Virus record (IMG/VR): IMGVR_UViG_3300030060_005272 | Coordinates: 313-64,312 of that record | DNA: 64,000 nucleotides | From: a virus | Taxonomy: Duplodnaviria; Caudoviricetes | Reading direction: 5' to 3' (one strand) | Shown here: positions 35,421 through 53,100 of the stretch, piece by piece | Layout: the number at the start of each line of letters is the position of its first letter | Position numbering within the stretch: position 1 is the first letter of the stretch | Made by a program: the position numbers and the translations under genes | The notes under the pieces: generated by a model | The model's input: only the letters and a program-made list of their open reading frames with translations | Database searches by the model: none | Told to the model about the DNA's origin: nothing

Positions 35421-38400
35421 TTAAGCAACCCTCACCCATAATTTAAGTGTAGATGCGGTCCCCACATAGTTGGTTGTATCTACATATGTATTTATATAAC
35501 TCTTTATATAGTCGTTTGAATAATCTATTGAATAAGTCTTGATAAAGTCTGTCTCAAAGTATCCTGTGAAAGTTCCTTCGTAAGCCTTATTGTAGTCTTG
35601 TGTATAGTCTATATATCCTTCGTAGTTCTTAGCATATTCTGCATCATAGAATTTGGCAAAGTTCTTAGTCCAAGCCTTTTCAAAATTAAGCGTTGCAGAA
35701 AAGTTAATGCTACCAAAGTTACTATTATATACAGCTTCATATTCTTTATCGTAGTCCTTAGCATAGTCTGTTTCATTACTATATGTCTTTTCGTATGCGC
35801 CTTCAAATCCTTGAGAGCGCGTAGCAGTATATGTCTTGACATATGTTATGTCAGCTGCGTACTCTTTTGTATAATCTGCTGTATATGTTTTGACATAAGC
35901 AGAAGTTCTCGACCCCTCATATGTATGAATAGATGAGTATGTTTTAGTATACACACCTAAGTATTCTTTAGCAAAATCTTTTTCAAAGTCTTTTTGGAAG
36001 TTTTGAACCTTGGCCCATTCGTTAACATATTCTTTATTATACATCCGACCCCAGCTCTTAGTAAACAGTTTATTGTAATTAATAAAGCCAGAAAATGTTC
36101 TTGTTACTTGTCCAACGTAGTCTTTGAGGTAGTTTGAAATAAATTGTCCAGTGTAATTGATGAAACCAGTATAATTGCCTTCATAATCCCGTGACCATAC
36201 CTTGGTATAGTCTTTGAGGTATGTTGCGGAGTAGTTGCGAGTATATGCTTTCTCCCAAATTTTTGTCCATATTCTTTCATAAGTTTTTGCGTAGGACTTC
36301 TCGTATGCTTTCTCATAAGCCTTTACCCAATCTTTAAGATATCTTCCAACGTAGTTTTTAACATAGTCTTTTTCATAATCAGTCTCATATGTTTTAGTCC
36401 ATAGCTTAGTGTAAGTCTTGGTGTATACTTTATTCCAATCCTTAGTGTATGTCTTAACCCAATTCTTTGTATAAGTTTTTACCCAGTCAGCATCAAATGA
36501 ACCTTCGTAGTCTTTGACATAGTTCTTCTCATATTGTGTTACCCAGTTCTTTGTGTAAGCTGCTTCATAGTCTTTCTCATAACTAGCTTCATAAGCCTTG
36601 ACCCAGTTCTTTGCATACTGTGCAACATATGCAGCATCGAAAGATCCTTCATACTCTTTATCATAATCCTTAGCCCACAACTTAGCATAGTCTTTTAGAT
36701 AATCTTTATTCCATATCTTAGTGTAGGTTGCATCAAAGGAACCTTCATATGCTTTAACATAGTCCTTGTCATATGTCTTAACCCAGTTCTTTTGATATAC
36801 TGCAACATAATCAATGTTCCAGTCTTTAGACCAATCTTTGTTGTATACTTTATCATAGTTTTTAGTATAAGTCTTTACATAGTTTTTAGTATAAGCTGCT
36901 TCATATGCTTTGTTCCAATCCTTATTGTAAACACCAACATATGCTTTAGTATAAGTTTTGACCCAAGACTTTTCATATATCTTATCATATGCCTTTACAT
37001 AATCTGCATCGTAGTTCTTTATCCAGTTCTTGGTATATGCTTTGTTCCAATCTTTTGTATATGTTTTCGTCCATATCTTTGTATAGTTGGCACCAAAGCT
37101 ACCTTCCCAAACTTTTGTATAGTTTGTAGTTTGAGATCCAGAAGCAAAACCTCCATAGAACACAGGCCCAACATATATTTTAGTATACTCACCTAACCAG
37201 GCCTTAGCATAAACTTTATCGTAGTCTTTGTTGTAGTCTGTTGTATACGTCTTGTCATAATCTGTGACGTAGTCTTTTGACCAGATCTTAGTGTAAGTCT
37301 TGTTCCATATTTTTGTATATGCAGCTACATAATCTTTATCGTAGTTTTCATTAAACGAACCTTCATATGCAGCATCATATGTCTTGACCCAATCCTTATT
37401 CCATATCTTTACGTAATCTTTTTCCCAGTCCTTGGCCCAGATCTTTGTGTATGCTGCATCATAGATTTTTGTGTACGTTTGTGACCAGATGCGATCGTAG
37501 TCCTTAACATAATCTTTGTCATAAGACTTGACATAATTTTTTTCATACTCACCAACCCATTGTTTTGCGTAGTCTGCATCATATGATTTTACCCAATTCT
37601 TTACATATATTTTTTCATAGTCTTTTGACCAGTCTTTAGTATAGATACCTAACCATACTTTGTTCCATGGAATCTCATAACCTTTGACATAGTCTTTGTT
37701 CCATACCTTTAGATATGATTTTACCCAGTTATGAGTGTAGTCTGTAACCCAATCTTTCTCATATGCTTTGACATAATCTTTGCTGTACACACCAACATAT
37801 GCCTTGACATAAGTTTTTTCGTAGTTAGTGATATAGTCTTTATTGTAATCAGTAGTATATGTCTTGCCATAATCTTTTAGATAGTCAGCAGAATAATCTT
37901 TGTTCCAAACTTTGGTATAAGCCTTGACCCAGTTTTTGACCCAGTCTTTATCGTATGCGGCTTCATAGTCTTTCTCGTAAGCCTTGACCCAGTCTTCCAA
38001 CCAACTCTTTTCATATAACTTTTCATACTGAACAGTATATTGCTTTACCCAATCTTTTGTCCAAAGTTTTGCATAAGCCTTTTGATAGTTGACTGTATAG
38101 TTTTTAGTCCATTCAGATTGGAATACACCAGGACCAGAAAACTCAACTGTCCATGCTCTACCATAATCTTTTGTATATGTTCTATTGAATGTACCAGAAT
38201 AGTTTGCAGCAGCTGAGAATGAAGCTGCATAATCATTTCCAAAATCTTTTACGTATGCTTTAACATATGTTGCAGCTGAAGTTATTTCACCTTCGTAGAA
38301 AGCAGAGAAAGATGCATTGTAGTTTACAACTCTCTCACCTTCATAGTTAACTTCAAAGTTTTCAGTCTTTTGATATTCACCAGTATAAGTCTTAGTATAA

Positions 38401-39512
38401 GTTTTATTCCAGTCTCTTGCATACTCTGCTAGATAGTTTCTTTCACCAACATATCCTTTGAGATAATCTTTATGAAAGTTTCCTGTGAATGTTTGATCAT
38501 ACTCTTTTGCATATAGTATAAAGCCAGTGTATGCTTTACTGTAAGACTTGATCCAATCTTTTGCAAAGTCACCTTCAAATGTTCTATTGAAGTTTACTAC
38601 ACCTTGATACACACCAATAAAGTCTTTACTGTACGTCTTAGTCCAAACTGTAGTGTATAACTTCTCATAGTTTATTGCACTGGTATATGCTTTTTGATAA
38701 TCTTTTTCATATGTACCAACAAACTGTCCAACAAATGTTCCAGTGTATGTTTTGAGATAATTTTTAGCAAATGCTTTAGTATATGTTTTTAAGTATTCCC
38801 TTGAATAGGAATCACTATCAGAATCAATGATCTTTGTATCAAGTATAGTTCCTTGGTCAACCCATGTACCAGTAGATGGTGCAGCTGCTTGAATAGCATA
38901 CTTACCAATTCCTGTATCAATAATTCTATTTCTTAGTCTTGCTGTGAGAGTTTTGATCTCTGTATTAGTCATCTGTTTTATTGTGCTACCAGTAACCTTC
39001 ATTGGTATAACTTGAGCTGGTGCAGTTGCAACAGATGTTTTTCTGTATAGATTATAACTTGTAGAAGTACTCGTTGTGTTATCAGTTAGCGCTGGTGTTA
39101 TAGCAGCGTATCTATTTGAGTCAGGATTTGTTGTTGACAGGACATAAGACCCAATTCCGTTAGACACAAGATTAGAAAGAGCAGTGCTAATGATAAACGA
39201 ATTAATATTTGCATCAGATGCCTCTTGTATAGTTGAACCGAACTCCACGGGGCGGATCATACTTGATTCTGACACGGATGTTAAATTTTGATAAACTGTA
39301 GTTGTGGAACTTGTTGATGAATTGGTATCTGTAAATGTACCAATACTTGTTCCAGTATCTGTTCCAACAGATAGAGTTCCAGTACCAGAAGTACTAGATG
39401 CAAACTCTGTAAGAACTTGATGGACTATGTGGGTTATTTCTGTATCTGGAATCTCTTGTAGAGCTATCCATGTTCCACCTCCAGAGGTTTTGATTTTAAG
39501 GGGCCGTCCCAT
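35421..39512 (-). CDS. 1363-aa [Y/W]-x-K-x tetrapeptide-repeat protein, putative virion fibre
   Basis: Thr/Ser-rich N-terminal domain (about residues 1-235), a ~1100-aa repeat tract and a short C-terminal strand TLKLWVRVA; lies in the virion module. Confidence 0.8.
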   Translation of the reverse strand: MGRPLKIKTSGGGTWIALQEIPDTEITHIVHQVLTEFASSTSGTGTLSVGTDTGTSIGTFTDTNSSTSSTTTVYQNLTSVSESSMIRPVEFGSTIQEASDANINSFIISTALSNLVSNGIGSYVLSTTNPDSNRYAAITPALTDNTTSTSTSYNLYRKTSVATAPAQVIPMKVTGSTIKQMTNTEIKTLTARLRNRIIDTGIGKYAIQAAAPSTGTWVDQGTILDTKIIDSDSDSYSREYLKTYTKAFAKNYLKTYTGTFVGQFVGTYEKDYQKAYTSAINYEKLYTTVWTKTYSKDFIGVYQGVVNFNRTFEGDFAKDWIKSYSKAYTGFILYAKEYDQTFTGNFHKDYLKGYVGERNYLAEYARDWNKTYTKTYTGEYQKTENFEVNYEGERVVNYNASFSAFYEGEITSAATYVKAYVKDFGNDYAASFSAAANYSGTFNRTYTKDYGRAWTVEFSGPGVFQSEWTKNYTVNYQKAYAKLWTKDWVKQYTVQYEKLYEKSWLEDWVKAYEKDYEAAYDKDWVKNWVKAYTKVWNKDYSADYLKDYGKTYTTDYNKDYITNYEKTYVKAYVGVYSKDYVKAYEKDWVTDYTHNWVKSYLKVWNKDYVKGYEIPWNKVWLGIYTKDWSKDYEKIYVKNWVKSYDADYAKQWVGEYEKNYVKSYDKDYVKDYDRIWSQTYTKIYDAAYTKIWAKDWEKDYVKIWNKDWVKTYDAAYEGSFNENYDKDYVAAYTKIWNKTYTKIWSKDYVTDYDKTYTTDYNKDYDKVYAKAWLGEYTKIYVGPVFYGGFASGSQTTNYTKVWEGSFGANYTKIWTKTYTKDWNKAYTKNWIKNYDADYVKAYDKIYEKSWVKTYTKAYVGVYNKDWNKAYEAAYTKNYVKTYTKNYDKVYNKDWSKDWNIDYVAVYQKNWVKTYDKDYVKAYEGSFDATYTKIWNKDYLKDYAKLWAKDYDKEYEGSFDAAYVAQYAKNWVKAYEASYEKDYEAAYTKNWVTQYEKNYVKDYEGSFDADWVKTYTKNWVKTYTKDWNKVYTKTYTKLWTKTYETDYEKDYVKNYVGRYLKDWVKAYEKAYEKSYAKTYERIWTKIWEKAYTRNYSATYLKDYTKVWSRDYEGNYTGFINYTGQFISNYLKDYVGQVTRTFSGFINYNKLFTKSWGRMYNKEYVNEWAKVQNFQKDFEKDFAKEYLGVYTKTYSSIHTYEGSRTSAYVKTYTADYTKEYAADITYVKTYTATRSQGFEGAYEKTYSNETDYAKDYDKEYEAVYNSNFGSINFSATLNFEKAWTKNFAKFYDAEYAKNYEGYIDYTQDYNKAYEGTFTGYFETDFIKTYSIDYSNDYIKSYINTYVDTTNYVGTASTLKLWVRVA
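35484..38807 (-). repeat. Degenerate 12-bp-periodic coding repeat ([Y/W]-x-K-x)n
   Basis: Residues 236-1343 of the 1363-aa ORF, e.g. YTKIWNKDYVKDYEKNW. Confidence 0.9.
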
Positions 39513-39518
39513 GACACC

Positions 39519-42500
39519 TTAACCTTGGAACATGTAGTTGGGGTCACCTAAAATATTACCCTGGTAGATCATGTTTACATAATCAGAGTCATAACCTTTA
39601 ATGGCTGCACCAGGTTTACCACCATCACCAGATCTTGCAAGTCTTGATTTCCTCAAGAATCTTTCACCACCACCGGTACCAACATTACCTAAGTCTCCAC
39701 CTTTACCACCAATGGCTCTTGAGTTACCATATTCCCAATCAGGAACACCACGGCTACCACCATTGATTAGATTACCTTCTTGTGGTAGGAATAACATATG
39801 ACTGTGATCAGCTTCAGTAGTACCTTCTTCACCAATGTTCCAACCAGCTCCACCAGAACCAGCTACACCAGTTGTCTCTGCAAATCCAAGATATGAAATG
39901 TTCACTTCTCTTGAATATGCTGTATCTTCAAATGTCTTAACATAGTCTTTTGTCCAAGACTTAGTATAGTCACCAGTATAAGTCTTCTCATAATCTTTAG
40001 TAAAGATACCTGTGTAAGTCTTGATCCAGTTCTTCTCATAACCTTTAACATATGCTTTGTTGTATGTTGTTGTTTGTGAGCCAGAAGCAAAACCACCGTA
40101 GAAGACAGGTCCAACATATGCCTTAGCATAATCTTTATTGTATATTACTAGATAGTCTTGGTTGAATGTACCTTCATATGCTTTTTGATATGCTTTTGTA
40201 TATACACCTTGATACAATTGATCATAGTTCTTGGTATATGTTTTGAGATATGTACCAATGAATGAACCTTTGGTGTTGTATACTCTAACAAATGTATCTG
40301 TGTACTCTTTGAGGAATGCACCATACACACCACCAGGTCTGCTATAGTTACCAAGATATTCTTTTATCCAAGTTGTAGCATAGTCTGCTGTGTAGTCTTT
40401 ATTGTACTCTGCCTCATAAGCCTTAACCCAATCTTTTGAATATGTCTTAACATATGTTGCAGTGTATGTTCCTGTGTACGATGCTTCATATTCTGCAGTG
40501 TAGTCTCTATCGTATGAGCCACCAAAGTCTTTCTGATATTGTTTTGTAAAGTCAGCAAGATATGTTGCAGAGTATTCACCAATGTATGTGGTAGAACCAA
40601 AACCCTTAGTCCATATTTTTGACCATGCTTTTTCATACTCTTTGTCATATGATCCTTCGTATTCTGCATCGTATGATCTTGAGAATGTTGCAGTGTATGA
40701 TCCAACATAATCTGCATCATATGCTTTAACATAGTCTTTTGTATATATTTTTGTATACGCTTTAGTGTAATCTTTATCATATGCTTTTGTATATGCTTTC
40801 GTCCACTCTTTAGCGTAATCAGCTGAATAGTCTTTAGTATACGTTTTGGTGTATGCTTTTGTAAATGCACCAGTGTAATCTTTTACATAATCCTTCTCAT
40901 ATGACTTAGTCCAATCACTTGAGTATGTCTTCTCATAACTCTTAGTGTATGCTTTTGTATATGTTGCAGCAGAGCTGTTCCATAACTTAGCATAGTCTTT
41001 GGAATAATCCTTATCGTAGTTCTTAGTATAGTCGCCAACATATACACGATCGTAGTTCTTAACATAACTCTTAGAGAAAGTTCCTTCGTAGTCTTTTTCA
41101 TAATCTTTGTTGTAATCTTTGGACCATGCTTTTGTATATGCAGCTTCATATGCTTTTTCATAATCTTTTTCATATGACTTGGTGTATGCTTTTTCCCAAT
41201 CAGTTGAGTAATCAACAGAGTATGCTTTTTCCCAACTCTTAGTATATGTTGCACCATCATAAGTAGGTCCTACATATGCATCGTCTGCACTCTCGTATGT
41301 CTTAGTATAGATACCAATGTATGTCTTAACATATGTTGCAAGATAATCTGCTTCATATTCTTTATCATATGCTCCACCCCACTCATCAACATAACTTCCT
41401 TGCCATACTTTGTCATATGCTTTTTGATATGTCTTTTCATATATGCCACCATATATTGTACCATCATATGTTTTGGTATATGTCTTAGTCCAATCTTTAG
41501 CAAATGCAGCACCATCATATGCTTTGTTGTAATCTTTTTCGTATACTTTAGTATATGTTTTTTCCCAAGCCTTGGTGTATGCTTTAGTCCATATCTTAGT
41601 ATATGTTTTGGAGTATGCTTTTGCGTATGATCCAACTGATGTAATAAATCCAGCAGACTCAAATCCACCATACGTACGACCAAATCTTACATTTGTATAT
41701 TCTTTTGCATAAAGAGCAACACCAGAGTCTGGAAGATAAGTCTTCATAAAGTTTGTTGGTGTCATTGCATCTTGCTGACCACCATGGAAAGATCCAGCCC
41801 AGTTTGAAGCCCAATCTTCTACCCAAGCCTTCTCCCAGTTAACTGTATAGTTAGCAGCAGATGAATCCCAAGCCTTAGCATATACCTTATCGTATGCTTT
41901 AGTATATGGAGATGCATATAGTTTAGTATAATCAACATCATAGTTCTCTGCTTGTGAGAATGATCCAAGCTCACCTCTTGATCCTGGTACTCCTGCAGTG
42001 TAAGCTGTCTGGCCAGTAAATCCAGAAACATATTCTTTGTTAAAGTCTTTAATGAAGCTAACTTCACCATCTCCATATGCTCTAGCAGATGTGAATTGTC
42101 CAGCTGCTCCAGTATAAGATGCTACGTCTTCATCAATCCAATACAATTGTCCAGTGTATGCTTTCTGGTATGCTTCAGTATAACTTGCATCGTATTGTTT
42201 ATTATATACTTTTTGGTAGTTTTTGAGATAGTCTTTCTCGTATGCGCCTTGCCAGATCTTAGTATATGTCTTGGACCAAATCTTAGTCCAGTTTGCATCA
42301 AAAGATCCTTCATATGCTTTTGCCCATACCTTAGCATAATCTTTTAGATAGTTACCAGTCCATACTTTAGTATAGTCTTTGGAATAAGCCTTGACCCAGT
42401 CTTTATTATATACTCCAACCCAAGCCTTTGCATAGTCTTTATTATAATCTTTAGTGTATGCTCCAACATACTCTTTATTGTATACCTTTTCCCAAGATTT

Positions 42501-45500
42501 AGTATAGTCAGCACTGAAATCTGTAGACCACACTTTAGTGTAGTCACCGGTGTATACAACCTCATATCCTTTGGCGTAATCTTTTGAGAAGATTCTTAGA
42601 TAGTCTGTACCGCCACCATTGAATGCTGCTTCAAAGTCTCTTGCATATCCTTTAGACCATACTTTTGTATACTCTCCTTGATATACTGTGCTGAAGTCTT
42701 TGGCCCATACTTTTGTGTAAACTTTATCATAGTTTTTAGTATATGTTTTGGTATAGTTACCTTCCCAGATCTTAGTATATGTCTTAGTATAGGTTGCATC
42801 AAATGAACCTTCATATGCTTTGGTATATGTCTTCTCCCAATCCTTAGCATATATTTTAGTGTAGTCTGCTGCATACTCTTTAACGTATACTTTTTCCCAA
42901 TCTTTATTGTATACACCAACATATGCTTTAGTATAGTCTGTAGAATAATCTTTGACATAGTCTGTTGAGTAGTCGCCAACATATACTTTAACGTAATTCT
43001 TGACCCAGTCTTTTGTATATGCTTTACTCCATGTAGCACCATATTCAGTAAGTACTCCAGAACCATGATATGTGTCACCAAGATATGTGGTTGTGTATAC
43101 ACCAGATTCTTTACTGTATGGATCAGAGATACCAGATGCACCTCCACCACCACCGCCACCACCAATGGTACCATAGTTCTCTATAAACAGATGTACGTTA
43201 GCTCCAGACTCAATAGCATGTCCACCATCACTACCATGACTACCTAGACCTCTTGTACTTCCATTTGCATCGCCACCATCTCCACCTTTACCTACAATGA
43301 ATCCAGTTGTGTAATTTACAATTCGTACAAGGTGTTTGATCTCTGCTTGTGTATCTCCTGAAACATTAGCTGTAACAGAATCCATATTCAAGTTTACAGC
43401 AGGAATATTATTTGCTGTAGAACCAAATACAAAGTTCTTAGTATAGTCATCTTTTACACCAACAAATATGTTCACTAATTGTGGAACAGTATCTGGTGTC
43501 TTACCTTTAGCTTCAAGATATGATTTTAAGTTGAAGTCATTTACATAGTAAGTGATCTTGCCCATATGAAGATCGTGACCTCGAGCTGAACCTGCATCAC
43601 TATCGCTAGTAAGAACTTCACCTTCATCTAAGAAGATATCAGTTGTATCGTAACCAATGTATGCTAGCTTCCATGTATCATCTTGCTTAGTATTTAAGTA
43701 CTTGACTTTCTTCCACTGACCAGATGCATGTACAAACAATTGCTTGACATTCTTCCAAGTATTGTCTTGCATGATATGAAGTTTAGGTTGACCAGCCAGG
43801 TTAGAATCAAGCTGACCACCAGAAGGACCTACGAAACTTGTTGTACCTTCGTAAGGAACATTCCTTGTTAGTGCACCAGTATATCTTTGTGTGAAGTCAC
43901 TATCACCAGTATATGATGGTGCAAAGCTGGCTATGTATGGACCTTCCCAAGTCTTAGTATAGTTAACAGGACCAGAATAATCAGTTGTTCCAGCATATGC
44001 TTTTAGATAGGCTGCTGCACCTCCATACGATCCGGTATAGTTAGCAACATACTCTTTTGCATAATCTTTAAGGTAACCTTTTGTCCAAGCCTTAGTATAG
44101 ACTTTATCATAGTCTTTGTCGTATGTTTTCTCGTAATCTTTGTTCCAACCTTTAGTATAGTCTGCAGCATAATCTGCTGACCATATCTTAGTATAGGTAT
44201 CACCAGACCCATCAACATAAGCCTTGGTCCAATCTTTAGTCCATACTTTGGTGTATACTTTATCATAGTTCTTGACATATGCTTTAGTATATGTCTTAGT
44301 CCAAACTTTTGTATAGTCTGCTGAGTAATCTTTTTCATACTCTTTTTCATAATTGTGACTATAGTTACCAGTCCAAGTTTTAGCATACTCAGTACCCCAA
44401 GCCTTACCATAAAATCTTAGGCCAGTATAGTTCTTGGTGTAGTGTATATTACCTTCCCAGTTCTTAGCACCGAGATAGTATTTGATGAATGTTGCAAAGA
44501 TACCTTCATAGGCTTTGGTGTAAGTACCTTGATACTCTTGAGTGTAGTCAGTCTCGTAATCTTTGACCCAGTTTTTAGTATACGTTTTGACATAGTCTTT
44601 TAAGTAGTCTTTGTCATAGTTCTTAGTATACTCACCCTGCCATAATTTGAGATAGTCTCTTGTATAGTGAGCTTCATATAATTTTGAATATGTCTTGCCG
44701 TAATCAACTGAGTAATCTGTTTCGTAATTTTTAACCCAGTTCTTAGTATACGTCTTAACATATACTTTGTTCCAGTCTTTGGTATAAGTCTTGACCCAGT
44801 TTTTATCGTAACTCTTAACCCAAGCTCTATCCCAAATCTTGGTGTACGCAGCTTCATAGTCTTTAGCCCACAGCTTTGTATAAACTTTATCGTAGTCTTT
44901 GACCCAATCTTTATTGTAGACTGCATCCCAGTTTTTGTCATAAGCAGCTACATAATCTTTCTCATATGCTTTGATCCAGTCTTTATCATACTGCTTTTCA
45001 TATTCAGTATCATAATTCTTGACCCAGTTCTTAGTCCATACCTTAGTATAGTCTTTTTCATATGTTTCAATATACTCTTTGTTCCAATCTGTTTCATAGA
45101 CCTTATCATAGTCTTTAGAGTATGCCTTCTCATATGTGGCATCAAAGGAACCTTCATATACTTTATCATAATCTTTAGAATATGCTTTTACCCAATCTTT
45201 GTTGTATGTTGCATCAAAAGAACCTTCGTAATCTTTAACCCAGTTCTTGACCCATTCACCAACCCAAACATTGACGTAATCTTTTACGTAGTCTTTGTTC
45301 CAAATTTTAGTGTAGACTTTATCGTAATCTTTTGTCCATATCTTAGTATACACACCAGTCCAAGTTTTGTCATATGCCTTGACCCAGTCTTTAGTGTATG
45401 TCTTATCGTATCCTTTTACCCAGTTTTTGGTATAGATTTTATCGTATGCTTTTTCATAATCTTTGTTCCAAACTTTAGTATAGTTTGCATCAAAGCTACC

Positions 45501-48500
45501 TTCCCAAACTTTGGTATAGTTTGTTGTCTGTGATCCTGATGCAAAACCACCATAGAAAACTGGACCTACATATATCTTGTCGTAGTTGCCTAACCATACC
45601 TTAGCATAAACTTTATCGTATGTCTTTTCCCAGTTCTTATTCCAGACCTTGGTATAATCTACGACGTAGTCTTTTTCCCATACCTTTGTATATACTTTAT
45701 CATATGCTTTTTCATACGTAGCATTAAACACACCTTCGTATGTCTTGTCATAATCCTTTGCCCAGATCTTAGTATAGTCTGCACTGTATGTTTTAACATA
45801 TGCTTTTTGGAATGATGTCCAATCAGCAGAATTTATTTGTTCTTGAGCTGTCTCGTTATCAGTAACATTGAAGTTACCAGTATACTTACCATTGGTTTTG
45901 TCTATTCTTAGATCATCAATGTAACCACCAATAGATGCATCTAACTGTCTTCTGTTACCAATTACTAATCTATTGGCTCCAGTTAAGTTAGCAGCTGAAG
46001 TATACGTTGCTGCATCAGCTGTACCATTAATGTATACTTTGATTGCGTTGCTTATTCTTACAATTGCAACATGAATCCAAGTATCAGTTGACCAAGGACT
46101 ATTGTCGTCTGCTGTAACTCTAGCTGTTGTTCCTTCGTAGAATATTATCTGACTAGGACTAGATGCATCGTTACCTCTGATAGCCCATTTAACACTATTG
46201 TCAGAAGAATCATATGCTTCCAAGATTGTAGCATTGTTTGTACCAACAGCTCTTAACCAAAACTCAATTGTAAAGTCTTCATTTTGAAAGTTAAAGTCAT
46301 CATCTGCAAAGTTAATTGTTAGACCACTAGATCCGGTACTTGGTACTTCTATAGATGCAGAACCAAATTTATTTTGATCTGTACTCTTAGCAGCATTTCC
46401 ATGTACAGTTGTAACATGGTTACCATTATCAGACGCGTCAATAAACTCTACATCACCATCGGTTGCATTTGGTATTTCAGCATTTAGTAATAGAACTGTC
46501 GTATCAAAGTTATCATATGGAACGTGATAAGATGTGACATAGTCTTTGCTGTATACACCAACCCATGCTTTTTCATATGCCTTGGAATAGTCTTTTTCCC
46601 AATTTCTATCCCAAATTTTTGTATACTCACCAAGCCAAACCTTATCATATGCTTTGACCCAATCTTTGGCCCAGATCTTAGTATATGCAGCAGTGTATGC
46701 TTTGATATAACCTTTGTTGTATGCTTTCGTATAGACTTTATCATAATCTGTTACATAGTCTTTTTCCCAAGTCTTACCATATGCTTTTATGTAAGCCTTG
46801 ACATAATTTTTCTCGTATGCTTTGACCCAGTTTTTCTCATACCTGCCAACCCATATCTTAGTATAAGCAGCATCGTATGTTTTTTGCCATACTTTTGTAT
46901 AGTCTTCAGCATAGTCTTTAGACCAATTTTTAAGATATATTTGATCATAGTTTGCAACATAATCTTTGTTATATGTTGCAACATAGTCTTTTAGATAGTC
47001 AGTGGTATATGTCTTACCATAATCTTTTTCATAATCTGTAACATAATCTTTCTGCCAAATCTTAGTCCAGATTTTTGTATATGTCTTGCCCCAATCTCTT
47101 TCCCAATCTTTGGCATAAGATAGATCGTAGTTCTTAGTCCATATCTTGGTATAGTCGGCACCATAATCTTTTTCGTAAGTAGCATTCCAAACTTTATCGT
47201 AGTCTTTAGCATATGCTTTGACCCAATCTTTGGAATAATCTGCTGCATAATCTGTTAACCAGTTTTTGGTATAGGTTGCATCGAAGCTACCTTCGTAAGA
47301 CTTGACCCAAGCCTTTTCCCAATCTTTTGTATAATCAGCTGTATATGCTTTCTGCCAAACTTTACCGTACGAAGTTGTTTGAGAACCAGAAGCAAATCCT
47401 CCATAGAAGACTGGACCAACATATGCTTTATCGTAATCTTTAACCCAATCTTTGGAATATACTTTGTTGTATAGTTTGATATAATCTTTGTTGTATATGC
47501 CAAGCCATGCTTTGCCATAATCTTCAAGGTAGTCTTTTGTCCAAACCTTTGTATAGATTTTGGTATATGTCTTTTCCCAATCTTTGGAATAGATTTTGGT
47601 ATATGGAACTTCATATGCTTTTGTCCATACTTTAGAATATACCTTATCATAATCTTTGTGATATGATGTACGATATGCAGCAACGTAATCACCAACATAT
47701 AATTTTTCATATCTTTTGGTATAAGTTTTTACATAATTTTTTTCGTAATCTGTGACGTAGTCTTTTGACCAGATCTTAGTATAAATTCTAAAGTAGTTAC
47801 CAATGTAATCTTTTTCATATACACCAACAAATGCAGAACCAAGATATGAGTTATCAGCCAGACCTTCATACGTACCAACATAGTCAGATGTTCCAACATA
47901 GTATACAAGAGTTTGATAATTTGTATCACCAGCATATGTACCTGTATAAGTTAGTCCATCGTAGTTTACGTTACCAAGATAAGACAGGCCACCAGACCAT
48001 ACTCTTGTAAAGTCTGCTACTGTTGTGTATGCTTTTGAATAGTTTTTGTTGAAGTTCTCTTCAGCCATGTATGATGCACGGCCAGTGTATGCTTTGATGT
48101 AATCAGCAGCACCAACATAGTTCTTATTGTAATCTACTGTACCAACATATGTCTTTGTATAGAATTGTGTAGCTTGATATCCTTTAGTGTAGTTCACAAA
48201 CCCTGTGAAACCAGCACCAGTAGAATCAAGATATGTTATTGCACCACCGTAGTCTTTACTGTAAACTATAAAGCTAGTTGCTCCTACCCATGCACCAGCA
48301 GAATAGTCTTTGTCGTAGTTTACATCAACTGTATATGATTTTGTATATGTTGCAGTACCACCATATGCTTTTAAGTAGTCTCTCTGCCACTCAGCTTGGT
48401 ATATTGTGTTACCAACATATGTTTTAGAATATGTTTTAGTATAAGTTGTTGAACCTTCATATGTTTTTGTATATGATGCAAAGCCAACAAATCCACTATA

Positions 48501-48998
48501 TGTTGGTGTGTATGCTAGTTCTCCAACCCATGTTGCTGTATATGCAGCACCATCATAGTTTCCATCACCAACATAACCAACAACACGACTGTATGCAATA
48601 TCAGTACTATATGTACCACTATAGTTGGCACTAATATTCATTTTAGCCCAGATATTGTCCGGTTGGTTACCTGTGGCTGAATAGTCTTTTCTGTATCCTA
48701 ATTGACCAGTAAAGTTCTTTAGTGATGTATATGCTTTTGAATAAGTATCAGTATCGTCTGAATTGTAGTTTACAAAGCCTTCATATGAAGCTGTGTATAC
48801 TCCAGCAAAGTTTGTTTGCCATGCAAGAGTTGATGTCCTACTATTAGTATAGACTCCCTCAAATCCATTATAGAATCCATGGAACGCATTTGTGTATACG
48901 ATGTAAGGAACTCTGGTACCTTGACCAGTGTACGAAACCTCAAAGGTCCGTTCCCCTCCAGCATATTCTTTTGCGTAAAGTCGATTCGAGTAAGACAT
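39519..48998 (-). CDS. 3159-aa repeat fibre/adhesin with [Y/W]-x-K-x tracts, a LamG-like domain and a split gp38-like Gly-rich domain
   Basis: Two long repeat tracts. LamG-like segment (DFTIEFW, W.HVAIVR, YING, GYIDDLRI) at about 45850-46515. Gly-rich gp38-like motifs at about 43130-43335 and 39519-39880. Confidence 0.8.
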   Translation of the reverse strand: MSYSNRLYAKEYAGGERTFEVSYTGQGTRVPYIVYTNAFHGFYNGFEGVYTNSRTSTLAWQTNFAGVYTASYEGFVNYNSDDTDTYSKAYTSLKNFTGQLGYRKDYSATGNQPDNIWAKMNISANYSGTYSTDIAYSRVVGYVGDGNYDGAAYTATWVGELAYTPTYSGFVGFASYTKTYEGSTTYTKTYSKTYVGNTIYQAEWQRDYLKAYGGTATYTKSYTVDVNYDKDYSAGAWVGATSFIVYSKDYGGAITYLDSTGAGFTGFVNYTKGYQATQFYTKTYVGTVDYNKNYVGAADYIKAYTGRASYMAEENFNKNYSKAYTTVADFTRVWSGGLSYLGNVNYDGLTYTGTYAGDTNYQTLVYYVGTSDYVGTYEGLADNSYLGSAFVGVYEKDYIGNYFRIYTKIWSKDYVTDYEKNYVKTYTKRYEKLYVGDYVAAYRTSYHKDYDKVYSKVWTKAYEVPYTKIYSKDWEKTYTKIYTKVWTKDYLEDYGKAWLGIYNKDYIKLYNKVYSKDWVKDYDKAYVGPVFYGGFASGSQTTSYGKVWQKAYTADYTKDWEKAWVKSYEGSFDATYTKNWLTDYAADYSKDWVKAYAKDYDKVWNATYEKDYGADYTKIWTKNYDLSYAKDWERDWGKTYTKIWTKIWQKDYVTDYEKDYGKTYTTDYLKDYVATYNKDYVANYDQIYLKNWSKDYAEDYTKVWQKTYDAAYTKIWVGRYEKNWVKAYEKNYVKAYIKAYGKTWEKDYVTDYDKVYTKAYNKGYIKAYTAAYTKIWAKDWVKAYDKVWLGEYTKIWDRNWEKDYSKAYEKAWVGVYSKDYVTSYHVPYDNFDTTVLLLNAEIPNATDGDVEFIDASDNGNHVTTVHGNAAKSTDQNKFGSASIEVPSTGSSGLTINFADDDFNFQNEDFTIEFWLRAVGTNNATILEAYDSSDNSVKWAIRGNDASSPSQIIFYEGTTARVTADDNSPWSTDTWIHVAIVRISNAIKVYINGTADAATYTSAANLTGANRLVIGNRRQLDASIGGYIDDLRIDKTNGKYTGNFNVTDNETAQEQINSADWTSFQKAYVKTYSADYTKIWAKDYDKTYEGVFNATYEKAYDKVYTKVWEKDYVVDYTKVWNKNWEKTYDKVYAKVWLGNYDKIYVGPVFYGGFASGSQTTNYTKVWEGSFDANYTKVWNKDYEKAYDKIYTKNWVKGYDKTYTKDWVKAYDKTWTGVYTKIWTKDYDKVYTKIWNKDYVKDYVNVWVGEWVKNWVKDYEGSFDATYNKDWVKAYSKDYDKVYEGSFDATYEKAYSKDYDKVYETDWNKEYIETYEKDYTKVWTKNWVKNYDTEYEKQYDKDWIKAYEKDYVAAYDKNWDAVYNKDWVKDYDKVYTKLWAKDYEAAYTKIWDRAWVKSYDKNWVKTYTKDWNKVYVKTYTKNWVKNYETDYSVDYGKTYSKLYEAHYTRDYLKLWQGEYTKNYDKDYLKDYVKTYTKNWVKDYETDYTQEYQGTYTKAYEGIFATFIKYYLGAKNWEGNIHYTKNYTGLRFYGKAWGTEYAKTWTGNYSHNYEKEYEKDYSADYTKVWTKTYTKAYVKNYDKVYTKVWTKDWTKAYVDGSGDTYTKIWSADYAADYTKGWNKDYEKTYDKDYDKVYTKAWTKGYLKDYAKEYVANYTGSYGGAAAYLKAYAGTTDYSGPVNYTKTWEGPYIASFAPSYTGDSDFTQRYTGALTRNVPYEGTTSFVGPSGGQLDSNLAGQPKLHIMQDNTWKNVKQLFVHASGQWKKVKYLNTKQDDTWKLAYIGYDTTDIFLDEGEVLTSDSDAGSARGHDLHMGKITYYVNDFNLKSYLEAKGKTPDTVPQLVNIFVGVKDDYTKNFVFGSTANNIPAVNLNMDSVTANVSGDTQAEIKHLVRIVNYTTGFIVGKGGDGGDANGSTRGLGSHGSDGGHAIESGANVHLFIENYGTIGGGGGGGGASGISDPYSKESGVYTTTYLGDTYHGSGVLTEYGATWSKAYTKDWVKNYVKVYVGDYSTDYVKDYSTDYTKAYVGVYNKDWEKVYVKEYAADYTKIYAKDWEKTYTKAYEGSFDATYTKTYTKIWEGNYTKTYTKNYDKVYTKVWAKDFSTVYQGEYTKVWSKGYARDFEAAFNGGGTDYLRIFSKDYAKGYEVVYTGDYTKVWSTDFSADYTKSWEKVYNKEYVGAYTKDYNKDYAKAWVGVYNKDWVKAYSKDYTKVWTGNYLKDYAKVWAKAYEGSFDANWTKIWSKTYTKIWQGAYEKDYLKNYQKVYNKQYDASYTEAYQKAYTGQLYWIDEDVASYTGAAGQFTSARAYGDGEVSFIKDFNKEYVSGFTGQTAYTAGVPGSRGELGSFSQAENYDVDYTKLYASPYTKAYDKVYAKAWDSSAANYTVNWEKAWVEDWASNWAGSFHGGQQDAMTPTNFMKTYLPDSGVALYAKEYTNVRFGRTYGGFESAGFITSVGSYAKAYSKTYTKIWTKAYTKAWEKTYTKVYEKDYNKAYDGAAFAKDWTKTYTKTYDGTIYGGIYEKTYQKAYDKVWQGSYVDEWGGAYDKEYEADYLATYVKTYIGIYTKTYESADDAYVGPTYDGATYTKSWEKAYSVDYSTDWEKAYTKSYEKDYEKAYEAAYTKAWSKDYNKDYEKDYEGTFSKSYVKNYDRVYVGDYTKNYDKDYSKDYAKLWNSSAATYTKAYTKSYEKTYSSDWTKSYEKDYVKDYTGAFTKAYTKTYTKDYSADYAKEWTKAYTKAYDKDYTKAYTKIYTKDYVKAYDADYVGSYTATFSRSYDAEYEGSYDKEYEKAWSKIWTKGFGSTTYIGEYSATYLADFTKQYQKDFGGSYDRDYTAEYEASYTGTYTATYVKTYSKDWVKAYEAEYNKDYTADYATTWIKEYLGNYSRPGGVYGAFLKEYTDTFVRVYNTKGSFIGTYLKTYTKNYDQLYQGVYTKAYQKAYEGTFNQDYLVIYNKDYAKAYVGPVFYGGFASGSQTTTYNKAYVKGYEKNWIKTYTGIFTKDYEKTYTGDYTKSWTKDYVKTFEDTAYSREVNISYLGFAETTGVAGSGGAGWNIGEEGTTEADHSHMLFLPQEGNLINGGSRGVPDWEYGNSRAIGGKGGDLGNVGTGGGERFLRKSRLARSGDGGKPGAAIKGYDSDYVNMIYQGNILGDPNYMFQG
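39910..43110 (-). repeat. Second [Y/W]-x-K-x repeat tract of the 3159-aa protein
   Basis: About 1070 residues of 4-residue periodicity between the two halves of the Gly-rich domain. Confidence 0.85.
43850..48990 (-). repeat. First [Y/W]-x-K-x repeat tract of the 3159-aa protein, interrupted by the LamG-like domain
   Basis: 4-residue periodic aromatic/Lys pattern, more irregular and Gly-rich at both ends. Confidence 0.85.
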
Positions 48999-50182: not shown

Positions 50183-53100
50183 TTATATACTCAATGCCAG
50201 AGCTCTGAAGTCCCTTACCCTTGGTGCTAAAGCAGCATTGCTACTCTTCAATACAATCTTAATCTGGAAGTTTTTGAATGTATCAAATTTATTCTGACTA
50301 CTATTGTAGTATGTTGCAATGAACTCGTTCTGAGGGTCTTTAAACGCTGTCTGAGGCGTATCTACCTTCAGTATATCTGCTTGTGTGTTATCAAAGCTGA
50401 TTGCATTACCAACTGTAACAACTGTAGAGTTAACTGCAGTTACTGTTTCAATTTGATAATCTATTGATGCATCTGTGTTAACTATCTTAATCAAGTCTCC
50501 TACAGATAGTGCACTAGACTGATCATCTGTTGTTGCAATCAACGCATTAGCATTATCAGCAAGACCTTTACCAACAAGTAATGTTGATGGAGGTGTATCA
50601 GGTATTCTATATTCATACTCAGCAAAGTCGTCTAATGAACCTGGAGCTGATTGTTTGTTGAATCCTTCAAGTTGTAACCTTGTCCAATGTCTGTCTTCAA
50701 AGTCATCAACTTCTAGTTCATTAGATATTCTTGCATATATTTCTACATCAGATGAACCAGGTTTGGTAGCTGTAACAAACACTCTCAAGTCTTCAGCATC
50801 AAGTCCCTCATCCAATGTAACTGACTTGGAAAGATACTTAGCAGATGCACTACCAGTTAGTGGTAGATGTTCATTTGTATTACTGTTGTTAATTATATTT
50901 TCAACTCGTAGTATATTACTAATACCATCATCAATAACAGGAGACAAATGAGACTTAGCTGAGTTAAACAAGAAAGTATGTTTCAATGACTTACCTGTTC
51001 CATCAACTATTTCATTTGATCTACTCTTGATTATAGCAACTTCTGTCAATCTATTCCTGTTGTTGATTGGGAATTGTGTATTAGCAGTTTGTCCAGTTGT
51101 TGTGTTAGATTGATGAAATTGAGTTAATGCTGTATCTGCTGGTGTGATTTGATATATCATATTATCAAATGCAGTCATGTTAATATTTTCAACTTCTGTG
51201 ATTGTAGCATTTGCACCAGATTCACTACCAACAATACTATTTGTGTTAGCAAATTTGAATGTAGCATTAGCAGCAGTAGACTTGATTAGATGCATCTCTC
51301 TAAGCTGGTTAGTACTTTCGTAATAGAATATTTCACCAGTTGGTGTCAATTGAACGTCAGCTTGAGCTGATGTAAAGTCTGGAAATCCTCGGACAGTAAG
51401 TATGGTGTTGTTTGTTATTGCCGTCACCTCTCTGACTGAGTGAGATGTACCATTAGTCAGAGCAACGAACTGTCCTACTGCAAGGTCTGACGTAAATGTC
51501 GAACCTGTGCCAGTAACTGTTTCGCTGGTTGTTGAAAATGCAACGTTACCAGTAATGTTTGCAGCATTGTTGTATATAAATGCTCTCTCACCTTGTTCAA
51601 ATGTACCATTGACACTTTCCAATGTAAAGAATTCATGATCAGCATTTTGATAATCAACACTACCATCAGATGCATTGAACTCAGCTCTATAGATTGTGAA
51701 CTTAACATCTTCTTGTTGGTATGGTCTCCATGCTCTGTTGTTTGTAGACAAGAACATAAGACCTTCAAAGTTATCTTGGTTTATGATAGTATTTGTAGTG
51801 ATGTCTGTATCACCAGTCTTTCTAACATAGATGTTGTAGTTTGGATTATTTGCATCAGGTTTCAATACAAAGCAATACTCTAATCCACTTCTCAAGAATA
51901 CTGGAGCGGGGAATGTAAATGTTGTTGCAGTTGTACCATCAGAACTTATATTAACATCAGCTGACCTTAGATGTACTTCACCATTAGGCATAACGTGAGA
52001 TGATGGAAAACCATTCTCAACAGTTCTAATTTGTAACAACACACCAAGTACTGGATCTTTACTTTCAAAGAAGATATCCATCTTAGTAATAAATTGACCA
52101 GTGGTTGTACTAGTATTCTTAACAATAAATGTCTGTGCTAAAGGATCACCGTCTCCATCACCATCACCGTCTCCATCATCTTCTGGAGCAGCAGCAGGAG
52201 GAGGTGTTGTAATGATTGCAGGAGGAACAGCAGCAGCAGGAGGATTAGCAACAAATGTACCTGGACCAGGTACTGTAATTGCTTCTGTCCTTCTTGATCT
52301 AGTAGCTTGTGTCTCAACTGTTTCACCAGTTATAACTCTTGATCTTGTCACACCTAGTTGTCTTGTTGTTAATTGTATGCTAGCCTTATCGATACCAAAG
52401 TTATATGCATTGAATACTCCACCAGCCTGTGATCCAGTATCAAATGCAGCAGCAACTGTTGCCTGATCAGAAACGTTGACTTGTCTTTCACCAACTGGAT
52501 ATGTTTCAGCTGGAAGGTGGAATACTGCAAACACCTCACCAGAATCATTTGATCTGATTGCATCGCCTACAGCACCAGTTGTTCTAAAGTTTGCTTCGTT
52601 TATAGCATCACCAACATTTACAGTAGCTGGTTGACATTGAGCACTAACTGCTTTAGAATCAAAGTATATGTAGTGTCTTGTATTTGGTTTCAATCCAAAT
52701 GCATGTAGATATAACAACTGTTGTCTGATGAATGGGTTGAAAGATATATCTCTTACGAACTCACCAACAGTTTGTGTGTTAACAATGTCTTGTGTTTGAA
52801 ACTGGTTTTCACTTTGTTGTCGTCTGATAGTTCTAATAGTTTCAAAGTTATTGACTGTTGTGGTAGTTGTATCATTCCTTGTAGTTGTTCCACCAGGAGC
52901 AGGACTTCTTACTTGGTTAACTACAGAACTTTGTGTAGATCCAAGAAAGTTAGTTGCAGATGTATCACCAATGACTTCACTACGAGGTTCTTGAATTGCT
53001 TCAAGGTCTCGTATACTATTCAACAATGATCGTGTACCTTGAGTTAAGTCTAACTCAACATGGAAGTCATTTGAAGGTGGATGTCTAATGTCATGGAAGT

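Follow-up and report, generated by a model that had tools for sequence, protein, structure and literature searches.

A conserved 17-residue motif as the probable apex of a giant fold-back hairpin in two tail-fibre-like phage proteins

In the needle and tip of T4 gp37, each chain extends to the distal tip and comes back antiparallel, so that it turns at the far end of the fibre; this homotrimer carries His-x-His iron sites along the needle, has a variable tip and is built without a four-residue repeat. Staphylococcal SasG/Aap G5-E repeats and Borrelia OspA form single-layer beta-sheet rods without a conventional hydrophobic core, in the stalk of streptococcal antigen I/II an alpha helix lies against a polyproline helix, and tryptophan-zipper peptides and hairpin peptides with Asn-Gly or Gly-Gly turns are about 12–16 residues long.

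The two proteins analysed here, A and B, are encoded in a 64,000-nucleotide stretch of an IMG/VR virus record (IMGVR_UViG_3300030060_005272), hereafter the window. Like T4 gp37 they appear to reverse the chain, with antiparallel outgoing and returning segments, as judged from register-specific mirror covariation, but gp37 is far shorter, and the arms of A and B run for hundreds of residues, with an invariant tip and a four-residue repeat. Histidine makes up only 0.4% of A and 0.7% of B, there are no His-x-His arrays in either translation, and neither protein matches a gp37 family in Pfam or PHROG. B shares a glycine-rich segment with the Gp38-type adhesins of T2- and S16-like phages (PF05268), but the 17-residue motif considered here lies in the shaft, outside the Gp38 domain, and we know of no described Gp38 protein with a tetrad-repeat shaft. 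Like SasG/Aap and OspA, A and B would be long, thin, mostly antiparallel beta structures; those proteins, however, are not from phages and have domains of tens of residues and three strands, whereas A and B would use a four-residue unit up to 86 times and two strands. The proposed rules for aromatic pairing across strands, and a tight glycine turn that sets the register, recall the hairpin peptides, but with arms of 300–550 residues and a loop of 19. An out-and-back chain forming a long stalk, with a lectin-like domain mounted on it, resembles antigen I/II, although there is no sequence relation and the pairing in antigen I/II is between helices. The very long two-stranded rods that A and B most likely form from their four-residue repeat would be of a kind not described before.

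Both genes are read on the minus strand, plus-strand translations of the region being meaningless, and the motif, YVGPVFYGGFASGSQTT, occurs once in A and three times in B (window positions):

35421..39512, minus strand: gene A, 1363 amino acids (open reading frame and translation)
39519..48998, minus strand: gene B, 3159 amino acids (open reading frame and translation)
37125..37175, minus strand: motif copy A, A residues 780-796, proposed hairpin apex with closing pair Y780:K800
47373..47423, minus strand: motif copy B1, B residues 526-542, with arrays of 35 and 72 tetrads alongside
45522..45572, minus strand: motif copy B2, B residues 1143-1159, proposed hairpin apex
40068..40118, minus strand: motif copy B3, B residues 2961-2977, arms of 13 and 12 tetrads, preceding the glycine-rich C-terminal domain
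41649..41672, minus strand: degenerate motif-like YGGFESAG, B 2443-2450, in a 54-residue gap between arrays
44193..44219, minus strand: short turn YVDGSGDTY, B 1594-1602, between arrays of 17 and 15 tetrads

The four copies lie exactly where the first-pass annotation had placed them, with the Gly-Pro-Val codons that it quoted, and no fifth copy was found on searching the whole 64,312-base record from end to end. Its proposal of strong protein-level selection is borne out by a Nei-Gojobori count over the six copy pairs, in which pS is 0.51–0.73 (mean 0.62) and pN is 0, every pair differing synonymously at 7–10 of 17 codons with no amino-acid change, against pS 0.78 and pN 0.44 in 40 codons of flank to either side; had the motif diverged as its flanks have, each pair of copies should show about 16 non-synonymous differences. 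The motif is also retained in related phage contigs. The surrounding repeats had been called degenerate, rightly, since identity between copies at more than about 60 residues from the motif equals the background for any two in-phase repeat stretches (0.34 +/- 0.07), and the looser YGGFESAG that had been noticed near 41660 is the B 2443-2450 site listed above, kept in orthologues as YGGYESAG. An alternative explanation could be recent duplication, gene conversion or a nucleotide-level signal rather than protein function, to which the 22 identical bases just downstream of the motif in A and B2 and the patchy, parallel synonymous changes at codon 11 in two copies might be attributed, but this would not account for the synonymous differences in every pair, nor for the synonymous signatures that each paralogue keeps stably across lineages, and it is almost certainly wrong.

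Both proteins are built from a strict tetrad, [Y/W/F]-x-K-x, with a period of exactly four and an aromatic residue at every fourth position, uninterrupted in runs of as many as 86 repeats. Among 607 tetrads, Y occupies position 0 in 71%, W in 23% and F in 5%, and position 2 is K in 67%. With this period and no Pfam repeat family matched, the arrays differ from pentapeptide and hexapeptide beta-solenoids. Uninterrupted tetrads on the two sides of the motif number 80 and 80 in A, and 35 and 72, 21 and 86, and 13 and 12 at B1, B2 and B3. The main arrays are as follows:

37176..38123, minus strand: A left arm, an 80-tetrad run at residues 464-780 (coordinates are for 464-779, Y780 being in the motif)
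36162..37121, minus strand: A right arm, residues 798-1117, 80 uninterrupted tetrads
46506..47369, minus strand: B array b, residues 544-831, 72 tetrads
45573..45812, minus strand: B array c, a 21-tetrad run at residues 1063-1143 (coordinates are for 1063-1142, Y1143 being in the motif)
44487..45518, minus strand: B array d, residues 1161-1504, 86 tetrads, the proposed return strand, pairing with c and then b

Protein A has an N-terminal domain without repeats (residues 1 to about 235), tetrads from 236 to 1345 and its single motif copy in the centre. The symmetry extends beyond the uninterrupted runs: outer run boundaries in both arms lie equidistant from the tip, at 316, 348, 452, 478/479, 504/505 and 544/545 residues, and the phase of aromatic to position 2 is kept as far as 236 and 1345, where no two aromatic residues clash in the register that each stretch follows.

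Among the functions that the first-pass annotation had listed for the motif, a hairpin tip is the one picked out by the arrays on its two sides, whose residues covary as mirror images, with the register closing at the motif. The arms of A pair antiparallel at i+j=1580, closing exactly there. At this register Trp faces a non-Lys residue 27 times and Lys 18 times, while Tyr or Phe faces non-Lys 19 times and Lys 95 times (odds ratio 7.5, p=1.7e-7, for Trp against facing non-Lys). The count of 27 compares with 9–15 in 12 neighbouring in-phase registers and was reached by none of 200,000 tetrad permutations, and i+j=1580 tops 6501 antiparallel array registers with z=5.35. Adding a third statistic raises A to z=6.44, the next best value beyond the two real signals, those of A and B, being 3.75 (6150 registers). 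Independently of the Trp/Lys test, hydrophobic residues at position 1, on the other face, pair up most strongly at the motif-predicted register in all four tests, ranking first of 13 registers each time: A (odds ratio 7.3, p=5e-4), B arrays b and d (3.9, p=0.05), the B1 arms (8.75, p=0.024) and the B2 arms (15, p=0.09). On these statistics the 17-mer is probably the apex of a giant fold-back hairpin in both tail-fibre-like proteins.

In B an unbiased scan paired residues 544-831 with 1244-1504 antiparallel at i+j=2075 (z=5.16, or 5.53 with the third statistic; odds ratio 7.4, p=2e-6, reached by 0 of 200,000 permutations), the part of array b that pairs with array d being residues 571-831. The register expected for B2 is 2306, and the difference of 231 is the exact length of a Laminin_G_3 insert, after removal of which array c is collinear with array b. 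The pairing thus points to the second B copy as a hairpin tip with a lectin-like domain inserted into one arm, in phase, 21 tetrads from the tip; the arms would be 93 tetrads (b and c) and 86 tetrads plus a 29-residue linker (d). B further contains its three exact motif copies and one degenerate copy, a Gp38-like glycine-rich domain and a glycine-rich C-terminus. Its recognisable domains and an upstream neighbour are these:

45813..46505, minus strand: Laminin_G_3 (ConA-like lectin) domain, B 832-1062, 231 residues
43122..43397, minus strand: Gp38-like glycine-rich adhesin segment, B 1868-1959 (Pfam PF05268, PHROG 2056)
50183..56758, minus strand: DUF4815 protein, 2191 amino acids, upstream neighbour (Pfam PF16075, E=2.5e-52)

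The lectin-like domain matches Pfam PF13385 at B 825-1065 with 69 bits against a cut-off of 27.6 (E=6.5e-19). PF05268 scores 35.4 bits on B 1868-1959, and 40.4 as a fragment, against a cut-off of 25; in PHROG, B matched only GP38 (PHROG 2056, annotated as tail fibre host specificity) and an unnamed PHROG, and A matched no family in Pfam or PHROG. All copies of the 17-mer (A 780; B 526, 1143 and 2961) lie outside the Gp38 domain.

Elsewhere in B the Trp test was not significant: odds ratio 1.8, p=0.37 for the B1 arms, 2.4, p=0.41 for the short c-d stretch at B2, and p=0.15 for the B3 arms, which at 13 and 12 tetrads are too short for covariation. Register scans found no pairing partner for B 1986-2284 or the C-terminal arrays. 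Pairing of the unequal B1 arms is at best weakly suggested, and array b pairing with both a and d would require a three-stranded region. Phage fibres are commonly parallel trimers, and a bulge, hinge or trimer clamp in a parallel, unreversed shaft could accommodate the unequal arms of B1 and B2 and also the 107 tetrads found in each of the segments on either side of the lectin domain. However, the best of 5199 parallel registers reaches only z=3.79, against 5.35 and 5.16 for the antiparallel ones, the antiparallel register closes at the motif in B2 and in four A-type proteins (that of the window and those of relatives G001, G002 and L054), and arm lengths change together among relatives, so that such a shaft is very improbable.

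The register-specific covariation recurs in these relatives. For the A orthologues the odds ratio is 5.9 in G002 and 6.5 in G001. In the A-type protein of the metagenome contig L054, whose arms are only 34% and 41% identical to those of the window, equal to background, there are 79 tetrads on each side where A of the window has 80, and the odds ratio reaches 10.2 (p=1.8e-8) at the register expected for this protein and at no other, with 7.0 for position 1. Between A of the window and of G001, four of nine changes between W and Y/F coincide with a change between K and non-K at the mirrored site, some 400–530 residues away (0.91 expected, p=0.0065), and all four run between W:small and Y:K. More distant relatives (at most 50% mutual identity) have linkers of the form [YWF]xGxxxY[GN][GA]...G between arrays of 14 and 14, 20 and 20, 25 and 28, 12 and 15, 19 and 25, 16 and 26, and 25 and 14 tetrads. 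When seven of them are pooled, position 0 and the position 2 opposite it are most strongly associated at this closing register too (chi2=33.2, p=1e-6, best of 16), with secondary peaks at other registers (chi2 24.6 and 18.5) in this 3x3 test; the simple Trp test in the wider family was not significant (odds ratio 1.68, p=0.23). There were 16 motif-like linkers in 151 family members under a filter requiring Y followed by [G/N][G/A/N], so that a YGG-like core is present by construction. The family forms 148 clusters at 50% identity in public metagenomes, among which essentially no cultured or annotated member was found.

These patterns are best explained by a chain that would extend along the shaft, reverse at the motif and come back antiparallel, its two strands most likely forming a beta ribbon. 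Tyr would lie opposite Lys on one face, where the bulkier Trp would be met by Gly, Ala, Thr or Ser in place of Lys; on the other, hydrophobic residues would face hydrophobic residues. The hairpin of A would span roughly residues 236-1345, and B2 would close a hairpin 93 tetrads long with the lectin-like domain as a side insertion and B1 at the opposite end. The 17-mer and the next two residues would form the closing loop (Y780:K800 in A), with the Tyr-Gly-Gly ... Gly core as the turn; its YGG resembles the Gly-Gly or Asn-Gly at the loop centre of tight beta-turn hairpins. Degenerate arms of this kind would allow pairing in many shifted registers, and the unique loop may therefore act as the nucleus for folding, set the register and close off the exposed end. 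A beta conformation is suggested by the four-residue period and the composition; AlphaFold2 returned no usable model (pLDDT was 32 over A 700-879, and a second construct stayed under 30 in its repeats). Pairing is presumably within one chain, although the covariation would fit antiparallel pairing of identical chains equally well.

There were two observations on the loop that bear on further roles. First is that in the G001/G004 lineage a full motif copy, with arms of 18 and 16 tetrads, stands where the window has YVDGSGDTY, which suggests that a simple turn does not need all 17 residues. Secondly, the F6/Y state switches jointly across the copies of one genome while each paralogue retains its synonymous signature, which hints at a shared partner. 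Receptor binding, recognition by a chaperone or enzyme, and cleavage could all be additional roles of the same tip. The motif could serve chiefly for binding, as an aromatic, glycine-rich tip loop that contacts an invariant component of the host envelope or anchors the fibre to the virion; this agrees with the hairpin, the apex position following from covariation, and would account for the fixation of all 17 residues where a short turn can suffice; the loop presents Phe, Tyr and Phe flanked by glycines, the proteins carry lectin-like and Gp38-like adhesin domains, and concerted F6/Y switching is expected if one partner faces all copies. Receptor-contacting loops of phage fibres are usually variable, however, whereas this motif is invariant, and very short gene conversion could also give the F/Y pattern, as the parallel change at codon 11 illustrates, so we consider binding as the main function rather unlikely. 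A single trans-acting reader would likewise fit the identical copies and their concerted switching, and 307 bases upstream of B there is a gene encoding a Peptidase_S74 chaperone domain, with Asp/Asn hydroxylase-like and radical SAM genes in the region. Recognition by such a nearby-encoded assembly chaperone, modifying enzyme or protease is nonetheless improbable: none of these genes has a direct link to the motif, the sequence bears no mark of a cleavage site, cleavage in the loop would halve every hairpin, and mirror covariation already supplies a structural reason for the motif.

The PF05268-type glycine-rich segment is common to B and five of six homologues, which places proteins of the A/B type with fibre adhesins, and A and B, which are encoded in the region of a T4-like marine myophage that serves host recognition, are best explained as tail-fibre-like proteins. 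PMC7029224 puts a gene named VrlC at one border of the host-recognition cluster, and we take the 2191-residue DUF4815 protein to be VrlC from its position and Pfam match; according to the same paper, the tail-fibre proteins of marine T4-like phages could not be identified. Tentatively, and with some doubt, the proteins may represent a new class of phage fibre: a single-chain beta-hairpin zipper of 100–180 nm, with a four-residue code in which a Tyr:Lys checkerboard and Trp:small knobs-into-holes encode register, closed and nucleated by an invariant Phe/Tyr-Gly loop that would double as a conserved site of contact with the host envelope or of docking on the virion, with F replaced by Y together in every copy that a genome carries.

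Tail fibres decide which cells a phage infects, and those of the abundant marine T4-like phages are almost uncharacterised. The statistics given here provide, from sequence, a residue-level topology for two giant proteins beyond the reach of structure predictors, and a simple repeat code that is testable and reusable in protein design. The proposed hairpin would explain why arm lengths are conserved to a single repeat, would show how adhesin domains are mounted on a rod, and singles out one short invariant loop for probing folding, assembly or host contact.

The peptide YVGPVFYGGFASGSQTT, 17 residues long and here called the motif, occurs four times in two giant tail-fibre-like proteins, A and B:

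35421-39512, minus strand: gene A, 1363 aa
39519-48998, minus strand: gene B, 3159 aa
A residues 780-796, minus strand: motif copy of A
B residues 526-542, minus strand: motif copy B1
B residues 1143-1159, minus strand: motif copy B2
B residues 2961-2977, minus strand: motif copy B3

The viral record has 64,312 bases, is estimated to be 36% complete and is covered nearly whole by the window; no fifth copy occurs anywhere in it. The first-pass annotation had placed the copies at 37125-37175, 40068-40118, 45522-45572 and 47373-47423, and all four pairs of coordinates map exactly; the Gly-Pro-Val codons it quoted are correct. Across the six copy pairs 7-10 of the 17 codons differ, all synonymously, with pS 0.62 and pN 0 in the motif against pS 0.78 and pN 0.44 in the flanks (40 codons on each side), bearing out the protein-level selection proposed there. 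The surroundings are as degenerate as had been described, copy-to-copy identity beyond about 60 residues from the motif falling to 0.34 ± 0.07, no more than is shared by any two repeat stretches taken in phase. On this codon evidence complete purifying selection on the motif is demonstrated, and its identity cannot be accounted for by chance or recent duplication. An alternative source of the identity could be recent gene conversion, which is ruled out by the pS of 0.62.

The composition of A and B is about 14% Tyr, 11-12% Lys and 4% Trp, and an aromatic residue recurs at every fourth position, unbroken for up to 86 repeats. Over 607 of these tetrads position 0 is Tyr (71%), Trp (23%) or Phe (5%), position 2 is mostly Lys (67%) with Gly (11%) and Ala (10%), and positions 1 and 3 are mixed, mainly T, V, E, D, A and N. 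Each motif copy is flanked by two tetrad runs, and the aromatic-to-aromatic spacing across it is 18 residues, not a multiple of four. Counted as uninterrupted tetrads to the left and right of the motif, the runs are 80 and 80 in A and, in B, 35 and 72 (B1), 21 and 86 (B2) and 13 and 12 (B3). A one-residue-short linker, FNGGGTDY (B 2126-2133, window 42620-42643, minus strand), divides 36 from 38 tetrads; related contigs G001 and G004 have a single unbroken run of 74 tetrads at this site.

If the motif reverses the chain, residue i should face residue c-i, and mirror covariation should appear at one register c only. At c=1580 in A (Y780 opposite K800), Trp faced a residue other than Lys 27 times and Lys 18 times, and Tyr or Phe did so 19 and 95 times (odds ratio 7.5, p=1.7e-7). 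The 12 neighbouring in-phase registers gave 9-15 pairs of Trp with non-Lys, and in 200,000 random reorderings of the tetrads the count never reached 27. When all arrays of A and B that have 10 or more tetrads were compared in pairs at each register, ignoring self-pairs because they count the same data twice, this register was top of 6501 antiparallel tests (z=5.35), the top of 5199 parallel tests being 3.79; with a position-1 statistic added and self-pairs dropped, it scored 6.44. Hydrophobic residues at position 1, which would lie on the opposite side of the presumed strands, also faced each other at c=1580 (odds ratio 7.3, p=5e-4, best of 13 registers). Run boundaries lie 316, 348, 452, 478/479, 504/505 and 544/545 residues from the tip in both arms, the phase of aromatic against position 2 is kept out to residues 236 and 1345 with no aromatic:aromatic clash when the register applying to each stretch is used, and the C-terminus of A (1363) maps to residue 217 across the proposed hairpin.

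The signal recurs in relatives. At their own expected registers the A orthologues of contigs G002 and G001 gave odds ratios of 5.9 and 6.5, although with arms 93% and 73% identical to those of A they are not independent samples. The A-type protein of a further locus, L054, has arms 34% and 41% identical to those of A, the background level, and is effectively an independent replicate; with 79 and 79 tetrads against 80 and 80 in the window, it showed the Trp association at no register but the one expected for it (odds ratio 10.2, p=1.8e-8), and its position-1 statistic had an odds ratio of 7.0. Between A and its G001 counterpart, four of nine changes between Trp and Tyr or Phe pair with a change between Lys and non-Lys at the mirrored site, some 400-530 residues away (expected 0.91, p=0.0065), and all four exchange Trp:small for Tyr:Lys or the reverse; one of three such changes in G002 is compensated likewise. 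When seven distant motif-like modules were pooled, the 3x3 association of aromatic type with facing residue peaked at the closing register (chi2=33.2, best of 16), with secondary peaks of 24.6 and 18.5 at other registers. The simple Trp test over these modules was not significant, because Trp accounts for just 4% of position-0 residues across the wider family. Of the functions suggested in the first-pass annotation, that of a hairpin tip thus has strong, replicated statistical backing, the covariation closing at the motif.

The topology of B is more elaborate and involves two recognizable domains:

B residues about 832-1062: Laminin_G_3 lectin-like domain (PF13385, 69 bits)
B residues 1868-1959: Gp38-type glycine-rich adhesin segment (PF05268, above cut-off)

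The second-best signal of the scan pairs B 571-831 antiparallel with B 1244-1504 at i+j=2075 (odds ratio 7.4, p=2e-6; 0 of 200,000 permutations reached the observed count) and peaks at 684-760; after these two real signals the highest score among 6150 registers was 3.75. A hairpin closed by B2 would have register 2306, which differs from 2075 by 231, the length of the stretch 832-1062. With that stretch removed, array b (544-831) and array c (1063-1143) join in phase as one arm of 93 tetrads, and the return arm, at 86 tetrads with a linker of 29 residues, also comes to about 93. From this offset and the in-phase junction B2 is proposed as the apex of a hairpin, and on the same arithmetic the lectin-like domain is inserted cleanly at the side of one arm, 21 tetrads from the putative tip. 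B1 lies at the opposite end of the B2-closed rod. For its short arm against array b the position-1 statistic was in favour of pairing (odds ratio 8.75; p=0.024; top of 13 registers), and the Trp test for its arms was not significant (p=0.37); if the two really pair, this region would be three-stranded. B3, with its arms of 13 and 12 tetrads, stands directly before the glycine-rich C-terminus. Register scans found nothing significant as partner for array a, for B 1986-2284 or for the C-terminal arrays.

Two simpler arrangements did not hold. An equal-arm hairpin at every motif copy fails for B1 and B2 taken alone. A fold-back at the lectin-like domain is suggested by the equal segments that flank it, and its register was outside the best 14 of 6150, where the pairing of arrays b and d (1161-1504) was second. 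These segments, B 390-828 and 1063-1501, each hold 107 tetrads and one motif in 439 aa; the equality is kept in the window and the four relatives that hold the region (G001-G004), and the hairpin model leaves it unexplained. In locus L046 the B1-type copy before the lectin-like domain has 35 and 59 tetrads, not 35 and 72, and the contig ends ahead of the c and d arrays, which would be expected to be shorter as well. As a whole, B reads like two fused adhesin-tipped fibre proteins.

A peptide search among viruses, the check proposed for the motif, was positive: the exact-peptide DNA pattern occurs at 14 loci in five other viral contigs. In G001-G004 the readable run lengths equal those of all four copies in the window, even where the A fragment is 73% identical, and G005 has a broken copy. 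A looser pattern, GPV[F/Y]YGGFA[S/T]G, was found in metagenome contigs at 30 loci with 32 distinct contexts; outside it the residues are YV in 31 and WV in one, and SQTT in all 32, pattern scans being blind to variants beyond the pattern. Among 1.84 billion representative proteins, 148 relatives were retrieved by a profile-free search at E <= 0.001, and 149 of 151 collected proteins have runs of at least five tetrads. Closer members carry graded variants (WVGPTYYGGFASGADTT, WVGPTYYGGYASGSDET, WVGPVYYGGFASGSDTV) and distant ones a less strict linker, [YWF]-x-G-x3-Y-[G/N]-[G/A]...G, whose flanking arrays are often alike in size (14 and 14, 20 and 20, 25 and 28, 12 and 15 tetrads; also 19 and 25, 16 and 26, 25 and 14). 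The Tyr-Gly-Gly...Gly core is the part of the motif common to distant relatives. Glycine-rich C-terminal motifs of the Gp38-like type were found in 16 of 151 by a regular-expression screen, and PF05268 was precomputed in five of six homologues from a separate homologue search. Megablast of the A and B genes against named phages gave no match, and tblastn against 50,697 phage records gave one, at 23% identity, to Phage C48C1 (Kyanoviridae; OQ984149.1, 141011-151054), a hypothetical protein of 3347 aa encoded next to genes for tail fibres and chaperones. Statements on arm length exclude L032, where the repeat runs into an unrelated enzyme-like gene, L031, frameshifted where array d ends, and the broken G005 copy, an A orthologue split over three frames with masked bases; all three breaks are probably assembly artefacts.

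A plain turn does not explain the fixation of all 17 residues. At B 1594-1602 the window has a short turn, YVDGSGDTY, and the G001 lineage has the full motif at the same place. Residue 6 is Phe in all copies of some genomes, Tyr in A, B1 and B2 and Phe in B3 in others, and Tyr in each of the four copies of a third lineage, and throughout this switching the synonymous signature stays paralogue-specific. This pattern hints at an extra role of the motif, and a partner common to all copies would produce it. Very short conversion tracts would produce it as well, and a parallel synonymous change at codon 11 is compatible with them. Close to the motif there are other local similarities. A few residues downstream, 22 bases coding KVWEGSF are identical between A and B2 (37050-37124 and 45447-45521, minus strand) in the window and in G002, though 10 of 17 motif codons differ synonymously between the two. 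Upstream, KAWVGAYTKI precedes the motif in both A and B2 of G002, with five of ten codons differing, and the window has KAWLGEYTKI and KVWLGNYDKI; in G002 either the amino-acid sequences have converged or there has been patchy exchange involving some third source.

The neighbouring genes are a T4-like myophage set in which the major capsid gene shares 70.8% DNA identity, across 81% of its length, with its counterpart in Methylophilales phage Melnitz and the remaining DNA matches are mostly to cyanophages:

upstream of B: baseplate wedge genes (gp6-, gp7- and gp8-like)
upstream of B: DUF4815 protein, 2191 aa
49305-49964, minus strand, just upstream of B: fibre-like protein, 219 aa, with a C-terminal Peptidase_S74 intramolecular chaperone domain

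A 97-aa ORF with no assignment follows the Peptidase_S74 gene. Downstream are three unassigned genes, a plus-strand block that takes in a hydroxylase-like and a radical SAM gene, and then the neck genes gp14 and gp15. In that block the radical SAM gene (PF04055, E=2e-14) begins within an Asp/Asn beta-hydroxylase-like gene (PF05118, E=5e-6; the two at 27346-28801, plus strand), and the pair is in the host-recognition region between fibre and neck genes. A 159-aa ORF (32160-32639, plus strand) matches the Na+/Pi cotransporter family (PF02690, E=1e-15) and may be a fragment of an auxiliary metabolic gene. The same layout is described for pelagimyophages and cyanomyophages, with tail fibres directly downstream of VrlC and a hypervariable stretch, called the 'host recognition cluster', separating VrlC from gp14 (PMC7029224).

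Structure prediction was uninformative for the repeat. For A 700-879, modelled by AlphaFold2 from 14 aligned copies, mean pLDDT was 32.4 and no usable model resulted, and three copies of this segment as a complex scored 0.00 in two runs, without a verdict. A fragment of G001 B (18 tetrads, motif, 16 tetrads and adhesin domain; 16 rows) reached a mean of 47.5, below 30 in the repeat and 60-85 in the adhesin part; Foldseek of this model against the PDB gave no match at E <= 0.001, a gp38 receptor-binding domain being listed only at E=0.16. In PDB sequence searches the motif-region profile had one marginal match (E=0.063) and the last 1493 residues of B had none, and nothing usable came from the ESM Atlas. 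The repeat shaft and motif had no counterpart among Pfam, PHROG or PDB entries, and no Pfam or PHROG family matched A. The first half of B ends in the Gp38-like domain and the second in the glycine-rich C-terminus, to which no Pfam family matched. Literature searches at the level of listings did not find the peptide, repeat or motif described.

Taken as statistics of sequence, these results establish the motif as a loop joining two long arrays that pair antiparallel. The arms would be beta strands, since a period of four residues brings Tyr and Lys to the same face and the composition is one that suits strands. As the register closes at the loop, pairing would be within a single chain. This loop may nucleate folding and set the register of arms otherwise free to slip by multiples of four, with Trp:small pairs possibly a second register code. 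A strand advances 3.3-3.4 Å per residue, a rise that would give a length of about 105 nm for the regular part of A and of at most about 180 nm for the hairpin as a whole. In the needle and tip of T4 gp37, defined by His-x-His iron sites, the chain returns from the distal end, and this chain return makes it probably the closest case in working principle; such sites and any sequence relation are, however, absent from A and B, which are therefore not members of the gp37 family. By their C-terminal or internal domains, these proteins belong with the Gp38-tipped fibre adhesins.
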